From positions 24,218-88,217 of the IMG/VR virus record IMGVR_UViG_3300031576_000021: a stretch of 64,000 nucleotides of DNA; one strand, 5' to 3'. The stretch comes from a virus. Positions 1,718-60,519 of the stretch are shown here, piece after piece. Made by a program: the position numbers and the translations under genes. The stretch's first letter is position 1. The number at the start of each line of letters is the position of its first letter. The notes beneath the pieces are model-generated. The model made no database searches and was not told the origin of the DNA. It saw only the letters and a program-made list of their open reading frames with translations.

Positions 1718-2574
1718 CCGACCTAAAGCAAGACGTGCGTGCCCTAGCCGATGCGTTGGCGATCGCGCGGCCGTTCGCGCTCCTCGATCTCGAAACGACT
1801 GGCACCGATCCGAAAGAGGATCGTATCGTCGAGGTGGCCGTCATCCGGTGCGTCCCCGTCGAGGCCGATGTGCCGGCCGTCGAAACCTACGTGCGGCGCG
1901 TGAACCCCGGTGTGCCGATCCCGGCCGAGGCGAGCGCCATCCACGGCATCACCGATGCCGACGTACGCGACGCGCCGACGTTCGTACAGATCGCGCCGGC
2001 TGTCCGCGGCATGCTCACCGGAGCCGATTTCGCGGGGTTCAATCTACTCAGATTCGACCTGCCACTCCTCGCGGCCGAGTTCGAGCGGGTCGGTATGCAG
2101 TTCGACCCACACCTCTCCGGCCGGCGCGTGATCGATGTGCAGCGGCTCTACCACCTAATGCATCCTCGCGATTTGTGCGCCGCGCGGCGCACCTATCTCG
2201 ACGAAGATGCGGCCGACGCGCATGGCGCGCTCGCCGATGCGTCGGCGACGGGCCGGGTGCTCCTCGCCCAGCTGATCTATCATCGCGAGGAATTCGCCGA
2301 GGGGGGTGCTTTCCTGCCGCGCGATCTCGATGCGCTCAATACGCTCAGCCGTGGCGCGCAGGCGAATTGGCTGGACCCCGAGGGCGCGCTCGTTTGGAGC
2401 ACGGCCGGCGAGGTGGTGTTCACGTTCGGCAAGCACAAGGGGAAGACGCTGCGCGAGGTGGCGCAGACGACGGACTATCTGTCGTGGATCGTGCGGGAGC
2501 GGGTGAAGAACCGCGTGGTGCAGCAGGTCGCGAGTTCGGCGCTCGGTGGGGTGTTCCCCTGTCGGCCGACGTAG
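1714..2574 (+). CDS. DEDDh 3'-5' exonuclease (DnaQ/Pol III epsilon-like)
   Basis: LDLETTG, HGIT, FNxxxFD, AHGALAD motifs; C-terminal FGKHKGKT. Confidence 0.9.
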   Translation: MTDLKQDVRALADALAIARPFALLDLETTGTDPKEDRIVEVAVIRCVPVEADVPAVETYVRRVNPGVPIPAEASAIHGITDADVRDAPTFVQIAPAVRGMLTGADFAGFNLLRFDLPLLAAEFERVGMQFDPHLSGRRVIDVQRLYHLMHPRDLCAARRTYLDEDAADAHGALADASATGRVLLAQLIYHREEFAEGGAFLPRDLDALNTLSRGAQANWLDPEGALVWSTAGEVVFTFGKHKGKTLREVAQTTDYLSWIVRERVKNRVVQQVASSALGGVFPCRPT

Positions 2575-2576
2575 CC

Positions 2577-3296
2577 ATGCGCCTGTGCATCATCACCTGC
2601 ATGCGGGACGCGCTGCCGTTCCTGCCGCTCTACCGGGAGCAGCTACGGCGGTGGACGCTCCAGCCGGCGGTGATCGTGGTCGGAGAGAACGGCTCGGACG
2701 ATGGGACGCGCGCCTGGCTCGACCGCTGGGCGATCGACGACGACGCCCGCGTGGATGCGTTCTCGTTTGACCCGCCACCTGGACCGAAGCTGGAGCGCGT
2801 GGCCACGGCCGAGCGCGCGGCGCACATGGCGCGCGTCTGGAACACCTGCCTGGAACGCGCCCTGGAGCACGACTGGACGCATGCCGTCGTGATGTCCATC
2901 CAGAAGTATGCCCCGGCGTCGGTGATTGCGCGGCTGGCGGCCCTAGATCGAGACATCGTAGCGCCCCTGATCATGTTCCCCATGGGCGCGACGCGGATCT
3001 TCTACGATACGTGGTGCTTCCAGGCGCTCGACGGCACGCGTTTCTCCGCGCATGAACCGAGCGGCGATTCCGTGGAGGAAGTCGCGGGCGTCGGTGGCTG
3101 CTATCTGGTGCGCCGCGCCGTCTATGAAGCGGGCTGTCGGTTGGCGCCGACCGATGGCACGTTCTGCGAGTCGGTGGCGTTCTGCGAGCAGGCACGGGCG
3201 CGAGGATTCCAGGTCTGGGTGGATCGGCGGGAGCCGACCGCCTGGGCGTACTGGACGCCGGGGCCCTATCGCGCCAGGCTGGCTACGGATGGATGA
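2577..3296 (+). CDS. Glycosyltransferase family 2-like protein
   Basis: IVVGENGSDDGT, RVWNTCLE, GVGGCYLVRR, ESVAFCEQARARGF. Confidence 0.75.
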   Translation: MRLCIITCMRDALPFLPLYREQLRRWTLQPAVIVVGENGSDDGTRAWLDRWAIDDDARVDAFSFDPPPGPKLERVATAERAAHMARVWNTCLERALEHDWTHAVVMSIQKYAPASVIARLAALDRDIVAPLIMFPMGATRIFYDTWCFQALDGTRFSAHEPSGDSVEEVAGVGGCYLVRRAVYEAGCRLAPTDGTFCESVAFCEQARARGFQVWVDRREPTAWAYWTPGPYRARLATDG

Positions 3297-53636: not shown

Positions 53637-54188
53637 ATGAATCAGTGGTTCAACGTAGACAAGGAAGGGCTGGCGAAAGTACTGGAGCGCCGCGGACGCG
53701 GCTTCGCGCTCCTCGAACTTCTGCAAAACGGCTGGGATACGAACGCGACCCGCGTCGAGATGACGCTGACACCGCAGCCTGGCAAGGCGGAAGTACGCGT
53801 CGAGATCCGCGACGACTGCCCGACCGGGTTTAAGAACCTGGAGCACGCCTACACGCTGTTTGCGGAATCGTGCCGCAAGGGCGATTCGACGAAGCGCGGC
53901 CGATTCAACCTCGGCGAGAAGCTGGTCCTGGCGTTGTGCCGGGAAGCCACCATCTCCTCGACGACGGGGTCGGTGGTGTTCTCGCACGATGGGACGCGAC
54001 GACGGCGGAAGGCCGGAGCCACGGCGACCGGCTCGTCGTTCGTTGGCTACATGGCGATGACCCGCGAGCAGCTGGCCGAAGCGCTGACGATCGTCCGGTC
54101 GGTGATCCCGCCGCCGGGGGTCGTGACGGTGCTGGACGTATCGGCTCGGGCGACCGAGTTGCAGACTGCGCCGCGCGGCGCTACGTGA
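53637..54188 (+). CDS. GHKL/HATPase_c domain protein, ATPase domain only (probably truncated)
   Basis: ELLQNGWD (N box), RDDCPTG, GRFNLGEK. Confidence 0.7.
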   Translation: MNQWFNVDKEGLAKVLERRGRGFALLELLQNGWDTNATRVEMTLTPQPGKAEVRVEIRDDCPTGFKNLEHAYTLFAESCRKGDSTKRGRFNLGEKLVLALCREATISSTTGSVVFSHDGTRRRRKAGATATGSSFVGYMAMTREQLAEALTIVRSVIPPPGVVTVLDVSARATELQTAPRGAT

Positions 54189-55430
54189 GCGGTGTGCCAG
54201 TCACGGGCGACGCGAGCGAACACGCGCACGTCCGTGCGGAAGAAGCGGCGATGGCGTACGGGCATGCGCTCGGGATCTGGCGCGAGACGGGCGAGGGGAC
54301 TGACAACGCCTGCGTGCTGTCGCGGTGCGGCGCTCGGGTCCGCGTACTGGCGGGCTACGCCAGAGGCGAGGCGTTGTCCAGACCGTGCCGGCACCCGCGC
54401 GACTACGAAACGACCGGCCCCCCGATCACCGACCACGTCGCCGAGACCCACGCCAAGGAGGCGCGCGAACGCGAGCAGGCCCGGGCTACCCTGGCGGCCC
54501 TCCCCGACGTGCCCCCGCCCGAACGCCGCCGGGTGCCCGCTACGGCCCGCCAGCTCCCAGCCCCTACCGATCCCACGACCCAGCCCCACCCGACGCTTCC
54601 TAGCGCCCCGCTGCGCGATTCGGCCCCTCAAACGAGGGCCCAAAAGACGCAGACCTCCGGGGCTGGGATCGCGGCAGCCCTACTCACCGGCCGTACCGTC
54701 ATGAACGTTGCCCACAGTCTCGGGGTCGGCGAGGATCGGGTACGGGTCATCTCGCGCGAGCTAGAGGCCGCCGGGAAGCTGACTGCCTGCGCGTGCGGGA
54801 AGCCGGTCCGTCATGCTGGCCGGTGCCGCACAAGCGAACGGCCCGAGGCGCCTACTCCCCGAGCCGTTGCCCAGAGTGCGCCGCGCGGCGCAACCGACGC
54901 CGAGATCGACGCGGCGCTGCTGTCGGGAAAATACCGCTCGGCCAAGGAAGTCCAGACCGCGCTGCATGTGCGGTCGTTTCGGTCCCAGGCACGCGCCCGT
55001 GCGCTTGCGGCCGAGGGGCGGTTGCAGCCGTGTGCCTGCGGGCTCCGCTTCGGACACAGCGGGCCGTGTAGTGCCCGGCTCCGCGCGGAGGCCGAGCACG
55101 CGGAGATCCCGCCGGCAGTCTCGGCACTCCCCGGGGCCGCGTCTCGGGGCCGTCCGCCGACCCATACCGTCGAACGCATGGCGTGTGAGCGCTGCGGCGT
55201 CGAGTTCGAGTTCAAAGGCGCATCGGCGTGAGCGGGAAGTACCGAATCGACGGCAGCGGTTCTGTAGTGCCTCGTGCCGAGTGCAGGGGCGGGCGATCCC
55301 TCCCGAGCTGATCCGCCCCGTGACCTGCGGGTGTGGACGGCCCTCCACACACGGCGGCCGGTGCGCCGCGCGGCACAAGCTGGGGTTCGCGCGCCGTATC
55401 GCATGGTTGCGCGACTTGCAGCGACCGTGA
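54185..55430 (+). pseudogene. Multi Zn-finger/HTH protein with an apparent one-base frameshift near 55214
   Basis: CxCGxxxxHxGxC three times; CERCGVEFEF joins ...FCSASC if one A is removed from TTCAAAGGCG. Confidence 0.5.
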
Positions 55431-55460
55431 TCTTGCACGGCCGGCATTCCGTGGTATGGC

Positions 55461-57251
55461 GTGGCTCGAGTGGGGCGGTCGAAGGACAGGAACGATGCCC
55501 GGGTCCGGGTCGTGCGGGTACCCGTGGCCGGCTACGCGACGAACAACGCGTTGCTCGGGTCCGGTGACGAGTCTCCGGGCTTCGTACCCGTTCCCGTGAG
55601 CGGGCGCCCGAAACGGTTGCAGCACGTCGAGAAGCGCGAGAGCAAGAAGATCCGCCAGTCGCGTGTCTCCCCCGGTCTGTTCGACAGCAAAATCATTCCG
55701 CCGCCGGTCGACCCAGGGCGCCTCCTAGAGATCGGTCTCGACAACTCGGTCCTACGCCAGTGCGTCGATGCCACCGTAGTCAACATCGATCTGTTCGGCT
55801 GGACGTTGGAGTACGCCGGCCCCGAGGGCCAGGAGGACACGCCAGACTCCAAGCAGGAGAAGGCCCGCTCGGAGACGTTCTTCCTCACCTGCAACCCGAA
55901 GCAGTCGTTCACATCGATCCGCGAGGCCGTGCGGTTCGATCGCGGATTCATGGGGACCGGATACTTCGAGTTCATCCGGGACGACTCCGGCGAGAATCTC
56001 GTCGGCATCGAGCACTTGCCGTCCCGGACGATGCGGATCTGCGAGGAAGATCCCGAGCCCGTGGACATCCAATGGACGATGGTTGGCGCGAACGGCGAGC
56101 TGGTAACCCGCCCGATCGCCATGCGCTTCCGACGCTACGTACAGATCGCCGGCAGCACGCGCGTCTGGTTCAAGGAGCTGGGCGATCCGCGCATCATCAG
56201 TGCGCGTGACGGCCGGGTGTACGAGGCCCTGCCGCCGGAAGAAGAAGCGACCGAAGTGCTCCACATGCGGACCTACTCGGCGACGGAGCCCTACGGCCTG
56301 GTGCGCTGGTTCGGCAATCTGCCCGCGGTGCTCGGCAGTCACCATGCCGACATGACGAACCTGAATTTCTGGAAGCGGTCGGGTATCCCGCAGCTGGCGA
56401 TCGTCGTCTCCGGTGGCGGTGTGACCACGAAGACGCTCGATCGCATCGAGTCGTTCTTCAAGCACGGGCCGGACCCCTCGAAGGCGTTCCACGACGTGTT
56501 GATTATCGAGGCGACGCCTGATCTCGACGATCAGAAGATGGACGAGAAGCCGGCCACCGTGCACGTGCAGCTGAAGCCGCTGCATAACGAGCGCATGACC
56601 GATGCCGTCTTTCCGAAGTACGACGAGGCGAATCGGACCAAGGTACGCTCGTCGGAACGCCTCCCGCCGGTTTTGATCGGGCTCGCCGATGATCACACGT
56701 TCAACAGCACGCTCGGCGCCCGCACCACAGCTGAGGAGCAGGTGTTTCAGCCGGAACGCAGTGGGTTCGACGAAACGATCAACCTGCGCGTGATGCCGTT
56801 GCTGAAGGTGTTCCGGTGGAAGTTCGTCACGAACGGCCCGATGGTGGGCGACGTCGAGGCGTTCACGCAGGCCATGATTCGCTTCAACGAGGTCGGCGCG
56901 ATGACGCCCAACGTGGCGCGGACGATCAGCAACGAGATGCTCGGCACGACGTTTAAGACGATTGAGGAGCCGTGGGGAGACGTGCCGTTTGCGCTGACGG
57001 TTGCGCAGCAGCAGCCGCGTCCGGAGGAGCCAGGCGAGCCGCTCGACAAGGGAAAGCCGGATGAGGTCGCGGTCGAGAAAGGCGATGACGTCGTATCGCT
57101 CGTCGGCCGTGCATTCGGCGGCGACGACGCCGCAGTGGCGGATCTCGGCAAGCAGTTGCAGAAGGCCCTGCGGACGAAGGCCGCTGTTGTGGTCAGTATC
57201 GATCGCGGCAAGACGGTGTTGAAGGGCGGCAAGCGCGCCGTACGGCGATGA
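55461..57251 (+). CDS. Portal protein (PBSX-like)
   Basis: GTGYFEFIR, FKELGD, EVLH...YGLVRW, RLPPVLIG, TPNVAR; position after TerL. Confidence 0.9.
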   Translation: MARVGRSKDRNDARVRVVRVPVAGYATNNALLGSGDESPGFVPVPVSGRPKRLQHVEKRESKKIRQSRVSPGLFDSKIIPPPVDPGRLLEIGLDNSVLRQCVDATVVNIDLFGWTLEYAGPEGQEDTPDSKQEKARSETFFLTCNPKQSFTSIREAVRFDRGFMGTGYFEFIRDDSGENLVGIEHLPSRTMRICEEDPEPVDIQWTMVGANGELVTRPIAMRFRRYVQIAGSTRVWFKELGDPRIISARDGRVYEALPPEEEATEVLHMRTYSATEPYGLVRWFGNLPAVLGSHHADMTNLNFWKRSGIPQLAIVVSGGGVTTKTLDRIESFFKHGPDPSKAFHDVLIIEATPDLDDQKMDEKPATVHVQLKPLHNERMTDAVFPKYDEANRTKVRSSERLPPVLIGLADDHTFNSTLGARTTAEEQVFQPERSGFDETINLRVMPLLKVFRWKFVTNGPMVGDVEAFTQAMIRFNEVGAMTPNVARTISNEMLGTTFKTIEEPWGDVPFALTVAQQQPRPEEPGEPLDKGKPDEVAVEKGDDVVSLVGRAFGGDDAAVADLGKQLQKALRTKAAVVVSIDRGKTVLKGGKRAVRR

Positions 57252-57595
57252 CGCTGCGCGAGCTGGAGGCGGAGTTCTATCGATACGTCGACGAGCAAGA
57301 CGGCCGCATTCTCTGGAGGCTAGTCGAGACACTCGCGCAGGCGCATGGGGTCATGTTCCTGTGCCCGAAGTGTTACCAGGAGAACGGCGGCGCAGTGGGC
57401 ACGCATCGCGTGATATGTTGGTCGCGCTCGCGTGGCGTCCCGGATGAGGCGCAGCCGAAGCCCGGTCGGTGGCCGCTACTCGGCACCGGGCTCGACGATC
57501 TAACGCTGGACGGTGATCCCCCAGGTACTGCGTCGGTGCTACTCACGAACGGGTGCGGCGCGCATTTCTTCGTCAAGAACGGCGAGGTATGCTGA
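57248..57595 (+). CDS. Small Cys/His protein (DUF6527-like)
   Basis: FLCPKC...H...W...LTL...SV...GC..HFFVKNG. Confidence 0.6.
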   Translation: MTLRELEAEFYRYVDEQDGRILWRLVETLAQAHGVMFLCPKCYQENGGAVGTHRVICWSRSRGVPDEAQPKPGRWPLLGTGLDDLTLDGDPPGTASVLLTNGCGAHFFVKNGEVC

Positions 57596-60519
57596 CGCTC
57601 GACGACCTGATCACCGGCTTGATGGCCGATGTGATGAAAGCGCCGCACGGCAACTTCTGTCATCCAGGTCGCCGTGGACTCCGCGGAGGAGCCGGGCCCC
57701 ACACGCCGCACAGTCGGCTCCGCTTCCGCGTCGCGCAGCACCGGGTCGGCATCGGCGGCAGCTTCGCCCCGACCTACCCGGCTACGGTACGGGCGCCCGA
57801 CATCCCCCTCGTGCCGGTCGAGAAAGATCACGCCGAAACCGCCGCAGCCCGGGTCGCACGGCGTTGGGCACGTATCCTCCCGCGCTTGGAGACTCGGATC
57901 GGCGATGGGTTGCGCTCCCTCGAAGCGGCCGTGCTCGCCGCCTGGCGCTCGGTCTACCTGGAGGAGCGGCCGAAGCTCCAGCGGGCGTTGCGTGGCGAGG
58001 CAGCGGGCGCCGACGCGCTCCGCGAGCTGGCCGACGAGCTACTCGCCGCCTACGTCGAGAACCTCGCCGAGCGCCGGATCGTGCCCGTGCTCCGCGAAGC
58101 GGCGAGCCGCACATCGCTCGCCGAGGCGGCGCCGCTCGTGCTGGCCCGGGTGCCGGCCATGTTCGATGCGGCCTTCCAGCCCCTCTGGCAGCGCATCGTC
58201 TCCTTCAGTAGCCTCCGCGAAGCAGAGAAGGCGGCCGAGCCCAGGCCGCGGGTGTCGCCTGGCGCGGAGCTGATTCCTGAGGGTGTAAGTCGCCGGCAAC
58301 GCTACAGGATTCAGACGGCGGGGGATGATCGGGTGTGTTTCCTAGCTGGGACGCCCATCACCATTGAGGGCCGGGCCATCGCATGGGCTGCGAGTAGGAC
58401 GGACGCGGTGAGCCTGCTGTTCCTTGCGGATCGTGTACTGGCCGGGACGCCCGACCACCCGATCTGGAAATGCGGGCACGGCTGGATGCGATTGTCCGAA
58501 TTGCAGCCCGGTGATTGCGTGCAGAGTATCGAACAGCAACCGATCGAGGTGATCGGGCGGGTAGACTTGGTCCTCGTCGATATGCAACACGGACCATCCG
58601 ACCTCGCGCAGTCGCTTGTCCCGTCGGAGATCCTTCGCCGGGTCATGCCAATAGCGGCCGTCTACTTCGAGGGCCAGCTTGAGATCGCAGAAGGCAAAGT
58701 CCAGGGCGAAGCGACCGACCCGATACTCCTGCTCGTAGCGCATGGACAAACGATCGAGCGCCTCGCGGACTTGCCGCTCCGGCCAGGTTTCCAGGTTGGA
58801 GAATCGGTAGCAGGCGACGCTGCAAAATTGGCGGCGCGCGTTCTTGGGTTGCTTGCGGAAGTGTCGCCCACAGCTCCGGCAGGGAACGATCTCGGGTGGC
58901 CGGCGGCATGTCTCGGAGCAGTGGCGATACGGTCCGTTCGTGGCGACCCGGAACATGGACCCGCAGCGCTCGCAGGCACGGCGGACGATGCTGCGTCGCT
59001 TGCAGTCGCTGCATTGTTTGTACCTGGAGAGACTCGACTGACTTATTCGGAATGTCCGCAGACACTTTGGGCACGTGAACGGTCGAGTCTGCCGCATCCC
59101 CTTGAGCGTGCCAGCACAGCCGCGGCTGCACGTCGGGACGGCGGCATGCTTGCGGCGGGCGTTGGGGAACCAGCAGATCTTGCCGCACACTGGGCAGGGG
59201 ACGCCGCGTTGCTCCCGCTTCACCTGCTTGAGCTGGAGCGCGCATGGCCAGCTACACGTCGGAACGGTAGTCGGACGCTGCGGGCGGCCAGGCTGCAACC
59301 AGAACATGTTGCTGCATATCGGGCATGGGACATCGCGTCCCCGTGCATCGCTGCGACGCCTGGGTGGCGTCCAGCCCTGGTCGAGTGGTTTAGCGATGGC
59401 CCTGGCTTTGTCGTCCATAGTGTCGAGGTCGCCCCACATCCTGAGTACCACGCGCTGGGCATTCGCGTACATAATTGCCCGGTCTGCGAGTACATTTCCG
59501 AGTTACGGGGTAGCTTCAAACTCGCCGACGCACTCGCCGCGTTCGATTCGTTCTTGGATGCCGTAGAGGAGGATGTCCTCTCTGACGTGGTGGAGTCGGT
59601 CCCCTTCCCACGCATCGACGATATCGATGGCCTCACGGCTCGCGAGCTGTCCTCTCTCGGCGTTCTCTTGCCCCCGTTCCATCCAAACTGCTTACCTGGC
59701 GACGCGCTCGTAGCGGCCGGCAGCGTTACGGCGACGAGTGAACGGCGGTACAAAGGTGAGTTGCTCGTCGTCCGCACGGCCGGCGGCGAGATGCTCCCCT
59801 GTACCCCAAACCACCCGGTACTCACGCAGCGTGGTTGGGTGGGCGCATGTTTCCTGGTGGAAGGCGACGATCTGCTCCGCTGCGGCATCCCCGAGCGGGT
59901 AGTGGGTGCTGATGACGACGATGAACACGTGCCATCCCGCATCGAAGAGATGGCGCATGCGCCGTTCGTGCCGGGCCGCATGGTGTCCCGTGAAGTGCCA
60001 GTCTCCGCCCCAGACTTCCACGGCGACGGGGGAGGCTCCGAGGTCGCAGTTGTACTGACCGATCGCTTGCTGCGGAATGGTCACCAGGCCATGTGCCGAG
60101 AGCATCGCATGCAGTCTTCTCTCGTGATGGCTCATCCGACCCAATCGCTGGATGGTCTGGGCTTTCCGTCTGAGTTCCTCTTGGCTGGCAACCCGGCCAC
60201 GCACGGCCTCATGGGCCGCCTGCGTAAGGGCCGCACGCTGTTCGGGCGTCGCGTTCGCCATTCGGAGGAACATGCCGTCGGAGCGCCCACGTGGCGCAAT
60301 CCCAGCCTCGATCAAATGCCGGCGGATGACGCCCCTGGAGACGCCATGCTGCTGCGCGAGCGCCTTCTCAGACAGCCTGGGATAGTTGCGGATCAGCTGC
60401 GTGGTATCGAGGTCCAGTCGTTTCATGGGAAGGTCTACAACTGCGAGACCAAGGCCGGCTGGTATGTAGCAAACGGCCTGGTGACGCACAACTGCCGCTG
60501 CGGCATCGTGTTCATCTAG
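57589..60519 (+). CDS. MuF/SPP1 gp7-like head morphogenesis protein with two inteins
   Basis: Spliced product restores DDRV|CPVC and PPFHPN|CRC; lies between portal and protease. Confidence 0.9.
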   Translation: MLTLDDLITGLMADVMKAPHGNFCHPGRRGLRGGAGPHTPHSRLRFRVAQHRVGIGGSFAPTYPATVRAPDIPLVPVEKDHAETAAARVARRWARILPRLETRIGDGLRSLEAAVLAAWRSVYLEERPKLQRALRGEAAGADALRELADELLAAYVENLAERRIVPVLREAASRTSLAEAAPLVLARVPAMFDAAFQPLWQRIVSFSSLREAEKAAEPRPRVSPGAELIPEGVSRRQRYRIQTAGDDRVCFLAGTPITIEGRAIAWAASRTDAVSLLFLADRVLAGTPDHPIWKCGHGWMRLSELQPGDCVQSIEQQPIEVIGRVDLVLVDMQHGPSDLAQSLVPSEILRRVMPIAAVYFEGQLEIAEGKVQGEATDPILLLVAHGQTIERLADLPLRPGFQVGESVAGDAAKLAARVLGLLAEVSPTAPAGNDLGWPAACLGAVAIRSVRGDPEHGPAALAGTADDAASLAVAALFVPGETRLTYSECPQTLWARERSSLPHPLERASTAAAARRDGGMLAAGVGEPADLAAHWAGDAALLPLHLLELERAWPATRRNGSRTLRAARLQPEHVAAYRAWDIASPCIAATPGWRPALVEWFSDGPGFVVHSVEVAPHPEYHALGIRVHNCPVCEYISELRGSFKLADALAAFDSFLDAVEEDVLSDVVESVPFPRIDDIDGLTARELSSLGVLLPPFHPNCLPGDALVAAGSVTATSERRYKGELLVVRTAGGEMLPCTPNHPVLTQRGWVGACFLVEGDDLLRCGIPERVVGADDDDEHVPSRIEEMAHAPFVPGRMVSREVPVSAPDFHGDGGGSEVAVVLTDRLLRNGHQAMCREHRMQSSLVMAHPTQSLDGLGFPSEFLLAGNPATHGLMGRLRKGRTLFGRRVRHSEEHAVGAPTWRNPSLDQMPADDAPGDAMLLRERLLRQPGIVADQLRGIEVQSFHGKVYNCETKAGWYVANGLVTHNCRCGIVFI
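58336..59475 (+). other. MuF intein A (380 aa)
   Basis: CFLAGTPI, GTPDHPI, VHSVEV...IRVHN|C. Confidence 0.85.
58342..59472 (-). CDS. Antisense DUF559/Vsr-like endonuclease with about five Zn modules inside intein A (start 59472 or 59418)
   Basis: Repeated CxxC...CSxxC; TWPE...EQEYRVGRFALDFA...LALEVDGRYWH...D.RRD..L...GW.VLHI. Confidence 0.85.
   Translation of the reverse strand: MYANAQRVVLRMWGDLDTMDDKARAIAKPLDQGWTPPRRRSDARGRDVPCPICSNMFWLQPGRPQRPTTVPTCSWPCALQLKQVKREQRGVPCPVCGKICWFPNARRKHAAVPTCSRGCAGTLKGMRQTRPFTCPKCLRTFRISQSSLSRYKQCSDCKRRSIVRRACERCGSMFRVATNGPYRHCSETCRRPPEIVPCRSCGRHFRKQPKNARRQFCSVACYRFSNLETWPERQVREALDRLSMRYEQEYRVGRFALDFAFCDLKLALEVDGRYWHDPAKDLRRDKRLREVGWSVLHIDEDQVYPPDHLDRLLFDTLHAITGLQFGQSHPAVPAFPDRVVGRPGQYTIRKEQQAHRVRPTRSPCDGPALNGDGRPS
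59689..60492 (+). other. MuF intein B (268 aa)
   Basis: CLPGDALV, CTPNHPVL, VYNCET...LVTHN|C. Confidence 0.9.
59692..60489 (-). CDS. Antisense HTH plus DUF559/Vsr-like endonuclease inside intein B (start 60489 or 60426)
   Basis: SEKALAQQHGVSRGVIRRHL HTH; S..E...QQAIGQYNCDLG...VAVEVWGGDWH...R...L...GW.V. Confidence 0.8.
   Translation of the reverse strand: MRHQAVCYIPAGLGLAVVDLPMKRLDLDTTQLIRNYPRLSEKALAQQHGVSRGVIRRHLIEAGIAPRGRSDGMFLRMANATPEQRAALTQAAHEAVRGRVASQEELRRKAQTIQRLGRMSHHERRLHAMLSAHGLVTIPQQAIGQYNCDLGASPVAVEVWGGDWHFTGHHAARHERRMRHLFDAGWHVFIVVISTHYPLGDAAAEQIVAFHQETCAHPTTLREYRVVWGTGEHLAAGRADDEQLTFVPPFTRRRNAAGRYERVAR

Follow-up and report, generated by a model that had tools for sequence, protein, structure and literature searches.

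Two class-1 inteins in one putative MuF-like phage head gene, each with a probable homing-endonuclease gene on its antisense strand

The viral DNA considered here is a 64-kb stretch, called the window in the following, of IMG/VR record IMGVR_UViG_3300031576_000021, a source record of 88,217 bases with direct terminal repeats. The sole sequencing run in which this DNA is represented is a DNA run from a cave metagenome, possibly its source. On its plus strand, the window contains an open reading frame (ORF) of 988 aa (57553-60519) for the precursor of a putative MuF-like head-assembly protein, and this frame is interrupted by two inteins. Intein A (58336-59475, 380 aa) is bounded by DDRV↓CFLAG...RVHN↓CPVC, the arrows marking the splice junctions, and sits just before a CxxC motif of the host protein, while intein B (59689-60492, 268 aa) is bounded by FHPN↓CLPGD...VTHN↓CRC. 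The extein left after removal of both is at most 341 aa long. On the minus strand, each intein is accompanied by a second long frame, namely ORF-A (58342-59472 at its maximal extent, 376 aa) and ORF-B (59692-60489, 265 aa, with a GTG start). The codon boundaries of both coincide with those of the sense frame, and each ORF covers nearly the whole of its intein. The ORF listing and the junction motifs give the frames on both strands and the intein coordinates exactly as they were claimed in the original prediction, a reading of this DNA that preceded the present analysis.

Both inteins have a Cys at residue 1 and a Cys as the first residue of the C-extein, which is the class-1 pattern. In intein B, the block B motif TPNH occupies residues 39-42 and the C-terminal end reads THN. 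When the family of intein A is aligned (41 sequences), seven columns are invariant (C1, T38, H41, P105, V378, H379, and N380), and intein A conforms to every one of them; 39 of the 41 members match the Pfam model Intein_splicing. The profile of this family matches solved inteins only at profile positions 2-100 and 356-394 (best 2lwy, E 5.4e-18), and sense residues 24-91 of intein B align with the PI-MtuI RecA intein (E 2.5e-5). On the 988-aa precursor, the sole Pfam match is Intein_splicing at residues 723-980 (E 1.7e-5, 25.1 bits against a cut-off of 35.8). It is likely that both inteins splice out of the precursor, given their intact motifs and the presumed need of the host gene. No Pfam domain is found in the middle of either intein on the sense strand and the PDB sequence searches recognize none there, as stated in the original prediction. 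These middles are probably mostly unconstrained linker, with both strands constrained near the splicing blocks; the absence of a fold in them is suggested by the sequence searches and by a statement in the available text of a 2025 preprint (Gosselin, Arsenault, and Gogarten; bioRxiv 10.1101/2025.01.02.630785). The PHROG family phrog_15127, labelled 'head protein', finds its best match in intein B (residues 712-848 of the precursor; 59686-60096) rather than in the extein, and its profile seems to contain intein sequence.

The product of ORF-A combines CxxC...CSxxC zinc modules with an EDxHD/Vsr-like nuclease domain. Pfam assigns DUF559 to it (E 4.2e-8, 33.5 bits, cut-off 20.6), with MTES_1575 and Vsr matches below the cut-off, and an exhaustive HMMER search returns 2845 related proteins at E<=1e-3, 49 of them at E<=1e-30. 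Most of these homologues are 250-300 aa long and share ~40% identity across ORF-A residues 70-325. When aligned to 29 of them, ORF-A retains 24 of 24 invariant columns, including four to five CxxC...CSxxC zinc modules; the invariant residues of the nuclease part are E249, D258, E269, D271, W275, and H276, the acidic and His residues among them being candidates for the catalytic ones. The profile of the family matches the catalytic domain of I-Bth0305I (PDB 3r3p) with an E of 3.2e-16, 3hrl with 3.6e-8, and Vsr (1cw0) with 0.0038. In the AlphaFold2 model, the mean confidence of 10-residue blocks is 58-97 (mostly >80) over residues 41-320, 46-58 over residues 1-40, and 37-54 over residues 331-376, the poorly modelled ends being the parts antisense to the splicing blocks. 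Together with the span of the homologue alignment, the model places the confidently folded core at residues 45-325 (58498-59340, minus strand). A Foldseek search with the model again gives 3r3p as the best match (E 9e-6, target-normalised template modelling (TM) score 0.77-0.80). A word-index protein search with ORF-A yielded no relatives, and single-protein pattern scans of viral contigs yielded none either; we attribute these blanks to the limits of the two methods, because the exhaustive HMMER search gave the 2845 relatives mentioned above. The best PHROG matches of ORF-A, phrog_559 and phrog_1271, are labelled HNH endonuclease, and the domain itself is Vsr/DUF559-like.

The likely start of ORF-B is Met22, at 60426-60424, and its product comprises a helix-turn-helix (HTH) region and a Vsr-like nuclease. 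Pfam gives only a sub-threshold MTES_1575 match (E 1.2e-4) and weak HTH matches. The 44 database homologues share at most 52% identity with ORF-B; Pfam recognizes HTH domains in several of them, and two bear the name very-short-patch-repair endonuclease in their source. Every invariant column of the family alignment is retained in ORF-B, D128 and E137 being invariant and H144 nearly so, again as candidates for catalytic residues. The model calculated from Met22 with 35 homologues has a pLDDT (predicted local distance difference test) score of 92.0 and a predicted TM score of 0.73, and it is on this structure model that the assignment of a Vsr-like fold rests, the Vsr alignment spanning residues 97-217 counted from Met22. 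The two nucleases thus belong, as had been proposed, to separate families that differ in the DNA-binding region at the N-terminus, which consists of zinc modules in one and of an HTH in the other. The accompanying expectation that profile searches of both strands would find DUF559 or Vsr on the minus strand only is borne out above the cut-off for ORF-A, while ORF-B stays sub-threshold; the sense strand gives Intein_splicing only.

Before the minus ORFs are taken as genes, it has to be considered that coding DNA rich in GC frequently lacks stops in its codon-aligned antisense frame, and that these ORFs may therefore encode nothing. The region has a GC content of ~64%, the GC content at the third codon position (GC3; GC1 and GC2 for the others) is near 0.85 in neighbouring genes, and many further long antisense ORFs lie nearby. 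In the codon-aligned register, the stops of the sense frame are the complements of TTA, CTA, and TCA only. Using the TTA/CTA share of Leu codons and the TCA share of Ser codons in the window's own extein, just ~1.2 frame-closing codons are expected in A and 0.8 in B, and the probabilities of finding none are 0.31 and 0.44, respectively. The double openness is therefore weak evidence in the window alone, and the strength of the case for minus-strand coding lies in the homologues, the predicted folds, and the substitution patterns of the relatives. The codon-position composition helps the case for A, in that GC1/2/3 of the ORF-A core is 0.60/0.53/0.78 when read antisense and 0.78/0.53/0.60 when read sense, to be compared with 0.63-0.69/0.43-0.46/0.84-0.87 in four other genes measured in the same phage. 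For ORF-B the corresponding values are ambiguous (0.71/0.49/0.75 vs 0.75/0.49/0.71).

Relatives of the B type were collected by a tblastn search of ORF-B against 50,697 phage records, which gives matches in 119 records, 85 of them spanning at least 80% of the query. The phages infect Salmonella (65), Pseudomonas (14), Gordonia (8), Klebsiella (8), Escherichia (6), and others, and the matches generally lie beneath a gene annotated as head morphogenesis, MuF-like, or minor capsid, which is on the opposite strand in all eight annotated records examined. The two frames are codon-aligned with offset 0 in 14 of 14 B-type loci, six of which are IMG/VR contigs. In each of 11 B-type inteins, with GC contents of 0.42-0.66, antisense stops occur only within the first 12 and the last 25 codons at most. 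The junction reads ...N↓C...N↓C(R/K)(C/S) in 8 of 10 related B-family loci, and differs in the loci L004 and L005. Single-protein contig scans with ORF-B and with its Salmonella homologue were less productive, finding only three loci each.

For the A type, an alignment-based scan of IMG/VR found 383 viral contigs, and the figures that follow cover the best 80 of these 383. In 67 of the 80, no stop interrupts the codon-aligned antisense frame anywhere in the match, at contig GC contents from 0.31 to 0.70, and the sense ORFs that enclose the open matches are 255-1708 aa long. Of 48 distinct hosts, 44 allow the C-terminal junction to be called, and in 43 of these it has the form ...DERV↓CF...TxxHP...VHN↓CxxC, the same site as that of intein A; the 44th call (L085) is a mis-hit of the pattern. 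Both intein types are present together in three of the 80 loci (L036, L046, and L048), with an ORF-B relative in the second intein at HPx↓C. None of the 14 B-type loci has an A-type intein, L004 giving one weak nuclease-domain match only. The A and B inteins occur independently, and the double arrangement of the window is uncommon but not unique.

Some individual loci deserve mention here. In the IMG/VR locus L058, a second intein lies at ...LHPM↓CFVDK... in the C-extein of the A-type intein and is without an ORF-B relative; a third kind of insert uses the HPx↓C site there. L004 (974-3622, IMG/VR) carries a B-type intein with an antisense HTH-Vsr gene at the differing junctions ...RPANSD↓C...SHN↓CRIDIV, and Pfam recognizes the intein only. 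L004 is possibly a switch of host gene; the host may be a prohead protease, an assignment that finds no support in the searches. Among the eight GenBank records examined, the antisense ORF is annotated in one, Salmonella phage PK1 (PV360690.1, L002 2501-3310), as hypothetical protein XRA40086.1. The other seven list the head gene only, and the listing of matches suggests that vB_StyS-sam also annotates its antisense ORF.

Codon choice keeps the frame open in these relatives. No TTA, CTA, or TCA occurs in any nuclease core, while 213 are expected from host-gene codon usage when summed over 45 A-type inteins, a figure that carries the caveat that the loci were picked for being open. In A-type members with intein GC near 0.3, the individual probabilities of finding no frame-closing codon go down to 1e-16. 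Nested genes of the same layout are found at intein GC contents of 29-42%, and in low-GC A-type members the splicing blocks do have antisense stops opposite them, the core having none. That the ORFs of the window end so close to the ends of their inteins is thus partly due to its GC content. The overlap is cheap, because the nuclease gene need only avoid two of the six Leu codons and one of the six Ser codons. The stop codons of the two window genes are themselves complements of rare Leu codons, CTA at residue 3 of intein A and TTA at residue 2 of intein B, and some other members likewise have their stop opposite a rare Leu codon at one of these two residues.

The substitution patterns indicate which strand is read. 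In six Jersey-like sequences, the numbers of variable sites at sense positions 1/2/3 are 88/54/188 in the N-extein (243 codons) and 26/16/90 in the C-extein (104 codons), while in the middle of the intein (132 codons) they are 74/14/26. The first 100 intein codons have 30/12/32 and the last 40 have 7/1/13. The wobble pattern of the intein middle belongs to the minus frame, because sense position 1 is antisense position 3. The same is seen in columns 90-360 of an alignment of 45 distinct A-type inteins, guided by the sense protein, where pairs of sequences differ on average by 0.63-0.69 at position 1 and by 0.39-0.62 at position 3; identity is 0.21-0.53 in the antisense translation and 0.18-0.28 in the sense translation, with a tie (0.21) only in the last block, and the pattern turns around at both ends. 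Ten B-type inteins have the same substitution pattern under either alignment guide. By these comparisons, selection reads the minus strand in the intein middles of both families. The homologues are not translations of one conserved sense protein, because the excess of substitutions at position 1 excludes that.

The explanation by GC content alone is rejected in view of the DUF559 match of ORF-A above the cut-off, the 2845 homologues of A and 44 of B, the nuclease folds that are modelled with confidence, the members with 29-42% intein GC, and the switch of wobble variation to the antisense frame, and we regard it as scarcely credible. We consider it very probable instead that the window holds a MuF-like gene with two independent class-1 inteins, each carrying a complete antisense homing-endonuclease gene. 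The whole 988-aa precursor would be translated from the plus strand, and both inteins would then splice themselves out of it. The minus strand of each intein would be a complete endonuclease gene, laid codon against codon and yielding a separate polypeptide, in A a zinc-module array with an I-Bth0305I-type nuclease and in B a helix-turn-helix region with a Vsr-like nuclease. Each nuclease presumably cleaves its own host gene where a co-infecting phage has that gene in the intein-free form, and repair of the cut allele would copy the intein in, which constitutes homing. By avoiding TTA, CTA, and TCA, the nuclease gene would hold the frame of the intein open. On the central proposal of the original prediction, that the nucleases are separate antisense genes and not parts of the intein polypeptide, the ORFs, homologues, folds, and minus-frame substitutions all agree.

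A number of observations weigh against the assignment of two such inteins in the window. At 64% GC, open double frames arise by chance about one time in three. Intein A is merely 15-26% identical to its own family in the 41-sequence alignment, and alone it gives no match to intein models in Pfam or in the PDB sequence search. The Foldseek search with the ORF-B model is marginal (3r3p, E 1.4e-3), and the ORF-B profile has no significant Vsr or I-Bth0305I match (E 0.43 against 3r3p and 0.12 against 3hrl). The extein of the window has no Phage_Mu_F match in Pfam searches of the whole protein, of the extein pieces, and of the genome in six frames, and hhalign of it against related N-exteins gives no match (probability 0.6). 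Protein, contig, and DNA-level searches found no close relatives of the window's own copies, and the whole-gene DNA search against phages gave no more than 93 matching bases, in Gordonia phage Angelicage; the evidence of selection therefore concerns the families rather than the two genes of the window. Finally, there is no Shine-Dalgarno-like sequence upstream of the likely start of either window ORF, and a scan for sigma-70-like promoters gives 0 sites, compared to a mean of 0.4 in shuffled sequences. Terminator-like sites are uninformative (2 vs 1.8 in shuffles). That the nuclease genes are expressed independently of late-gene timing, as the original prediction put forward, is conjectural.

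The last of these points bear on the possibility that the window inteins are relics, which still splice and are inherited vertically but whose antisense nuclease genes are no longer expressed or active. Shine-Dalgarno-like sequences are present in some members of both families, namely GAGG or GGAG 8-14 nt upstream in 8 of 11 B-type inteins (judged by eye) and a tetramer of this kind in 12 of 44 A-type inteins (by a crude test), the window copy not being among them in either case. ORF-A also lacks the short 'MPF..C..C' N-terminus that is present in homologues, and some VSR-type inteins appear, in the available text of the preprint, to be vertically inherited (bioRxiv 10.1101/2025.01.02.630785). 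Both ORFs are nevertheless unbroken and retain all invariant family columns, the nuclease domain is modelled with confidence in each, and an unexpressed antisense gene should gather stops, though slowly at the GC content of the window. On balance, we think it unlikely that the two genes are relics.

Concerning mobility, two pairs of IMG/VR loci are informative. L021 and L022 have 0 differences in 394 intein codons but 33 in 391 N-extein codons, and L034 and L038 have 0 differences in 388 intein codons but 15 in 238 N-extein codons. Identical inteins in diverged exteins suggest recent transfer of the intein between phages. In the pair L018 and L030, the exteins are near-identical and the intein middle differs at 46/13/21 sites at positions 1/2/3.

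What has moved could also have been the nuclease gene alone. In this scenario, free-standing endonucleases invade inteins, and their target is a nuclease-less (mini) intein and not the intein-free host gene. An origin by such invasion has been proposed, as stated in the available texts of bioRxiv 10.1101/2025.01.02.630785 and PMC2677866. The scenario fits with what is seen in 11 A-type loci that are not nested, nine of which have no intein motifs around the nuclease gene, while in the other two (L084 and L091) intein halves flank the gene and the sense frame is closed; it also fits with the B-type intein of L004 in a host with other junctions. The type of nuclease, on the other hand, follows the host site, the zinc type being found at the CxxC junction in 43 of the 44 called junctions, and the B-family junction recurs in 8 of 10 loci, with two that differ. 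In addition, where the exteins have diverged, the intein is identical along with its nuclease, and the start and stop codons of the nuclease lie inside the intein in the members examined. We therefore give this scenario only a small chance, and retain homing of intein and nuclease gene as one unit as the preferred explanation.

The register of the two strands raises the question of how closely the two reading frames are tied together. In the B family, the nuclease begins with a Met codon that is complementary to the His codon of block F (HVYNLE on the sense strand vs LEVINM on the antisense strand), and in the relatives examined the Asn-Leu codons next to this His are complementary to the GAGG ribosome-binding site. 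With Met22 as residue 1 of ORF-B, the partner of sense residue s in intein B is ORF-B residue 247-s, so that the RecA-aligned residues 24-91, among which is block B, correspond to ORF-B 156-223; since the Vsr alignment covers 97-217, ~62 codons take part in both, and on the antisense strand these form the C-terminal half of the Vsr-like fold. The term filler, which the original prediction had used for the antisense-derived middle, is thus adequate insofar as the middle appears mostly unconstrained on the sense strand, but does not hold for these ~62 codons of intein B, which stand both in the RecA-intein alignment and in the predicted Vsr-like fold. One may tentatively go further and regard intein and antisense nuclease as a co-adapted, obligately double-coded unit rather than as a gene placed over filler, a proposal to which we assign a likelihood somewhat short of even. 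If it is correct, the codon-aligned register would have been selected for costing only three codons, and nature would here offer an instance of a single set of codons that specifies one folded domain on each strand.

It remains to discuss the host gene. Its MuF-like name rests on its position and on junction motifs that it has in common with recognized MuF genes. The N-exteins of A-type hosts with the same junction motifs match Phage_Mu_F in 8 of 10 cases, two of them above the cut-off, and related host genes in GenBank are annotated as MuF-like, head morphogenesis, or minor capsid. The A-type intein splits the Phage_Mu_F domain, because the match in the N-exteins stops at profile position 75-77 of 112. 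Immediately upstream of the precursor ORF lies a 596-aa ORF (55461-57251), which is a putative portal gene, called from its position only. Between the two, a 115-aa ORF with paired Cys motifs (57248-57595) overlaps the listed start of the intein-bearing gene, which makes the true start of the latter uncertain. Further upstream, in the region 54000-55600, the GC content drops near 55,300 from 0.70-0.745 to ~0.63-0.66, where the head-gene block begins.

The original prediction had presented the arrangement as a distinct architecture, and here it was anticipated by others. Full inteins of actinophages with antisense LAGLIDADG or VSR-like endonucleases are described by Gosselin, Arsenault, and Gogarten in the available text of their preprint, which distinguishes four host types of non-canonical inteins, the minor capsid gene included, finds all surveyed minor-capsid inteins to be non-canonical, and credits antisense LAGLIDADG inteins to Gorbalenya 1998 and Gogarten 2002 (bioRxiv 10.1101/2025.01.02.630785). 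Like the antisense-VSR inteins reported there, those of the window are unsplit and have a complete antisense endonuclease ORF between the splicing blocks, and in the window the antisense ORFs extend over the splicing blocks too. The survey of the preprint covers PhagesDB actinophages only, whereas the window is from a virus of a cave metagenome and the relatives found here include phages of Salmonella, Pseudomonas, Klebsiella, Haemophilus, and others, and its main text makes no mention of zinc, of helix-turn-helix, or of two such inteins in one gene. The window inteins are two further examples of an already described layout and are unusual only in sharing one gene.

Related arrangements differ in one respect or another. 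A cyanobacterial dnaX intein has an out-of-frame LAGLIDADG endonuclease, and selection in the overlap is frame-specific, with a low omega for the nuclease frame and a high one for that of the intein, according to the available text of bioRxiv 10.64898/2026.09.14.751524. The antisense and out-of-frame LAGLIDADG inteins likewise have their endonuclease read in a frame other than that of the intein, but the nuclease is of another family, the host genes are cellular, and for dnaX the frame is described as +2. In the fractured genes, as presented in the available text of Dassa et al. 2009 (PMC2677866), the two halves of a split intein are separated by the free-standing gene of an endonuclease, either Vsr-like or GIY-YIG. 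The Vsr-like family and the inteins of phage-type genes are common to both systems, and the model of entry by a free-standing nuclease applies to both; the host of a fractured gene, however, is in two ORFs joined by trans splicing, whereas the sense frame of the window is continuous over 57553-60519. Two of our A-type loci may be closer to the fractured state. L084 (~2260-3284) has, in the codon-aligned frame, block B TKDHP and ...VLVHN↓C around the nuclease gene, with 14 sense stops across the nuclease region, and L091 (~2297 onward) has only ...ILVHN↓C beside it, with 7 sense stops; both look like a fractured gene in the split-intein state or a dead host gene.

I-Bth0305I, to which the nuclease domain of ORF-A is closest in structure, is reportedly an EDxHD homing endonuclease whose gene lies in a recA group I intron of Bacillus phage 0305phi8-36 (work of Taylor and co-workers in 2011). 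It is intron-encoded and not associated with an intein. ORF-A has an N-terminal zinc-module array and ORF-B an HTH region, the comparison with I-Bth0305I covering its catalytic domain. With canonical inteins such as PI-MtuI and PI-SceI, the window inteins have in common a HINT splicing domain split by an insert and a presumed homing life cycle. In the canonical ones the nuclease is inside the intein polypeptide, whereas in the window it would be a separate gene on the other strand.

The value of the window itself is modest, that of a double-intein example from an uncultured phage. For the families, the nested nuclease genes are almost never annotated, though relatives are encoded in 119 phage records and in 383 viral contigs, and they show that long stretches coding on both strands occur in nature and are under selection. 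The cultured Salmonella and Gordonia phages among them make tractable systems in which the expression of an antisense gene inside a late structural gene, the homing drive, and the extent of codon sharing may be studied.

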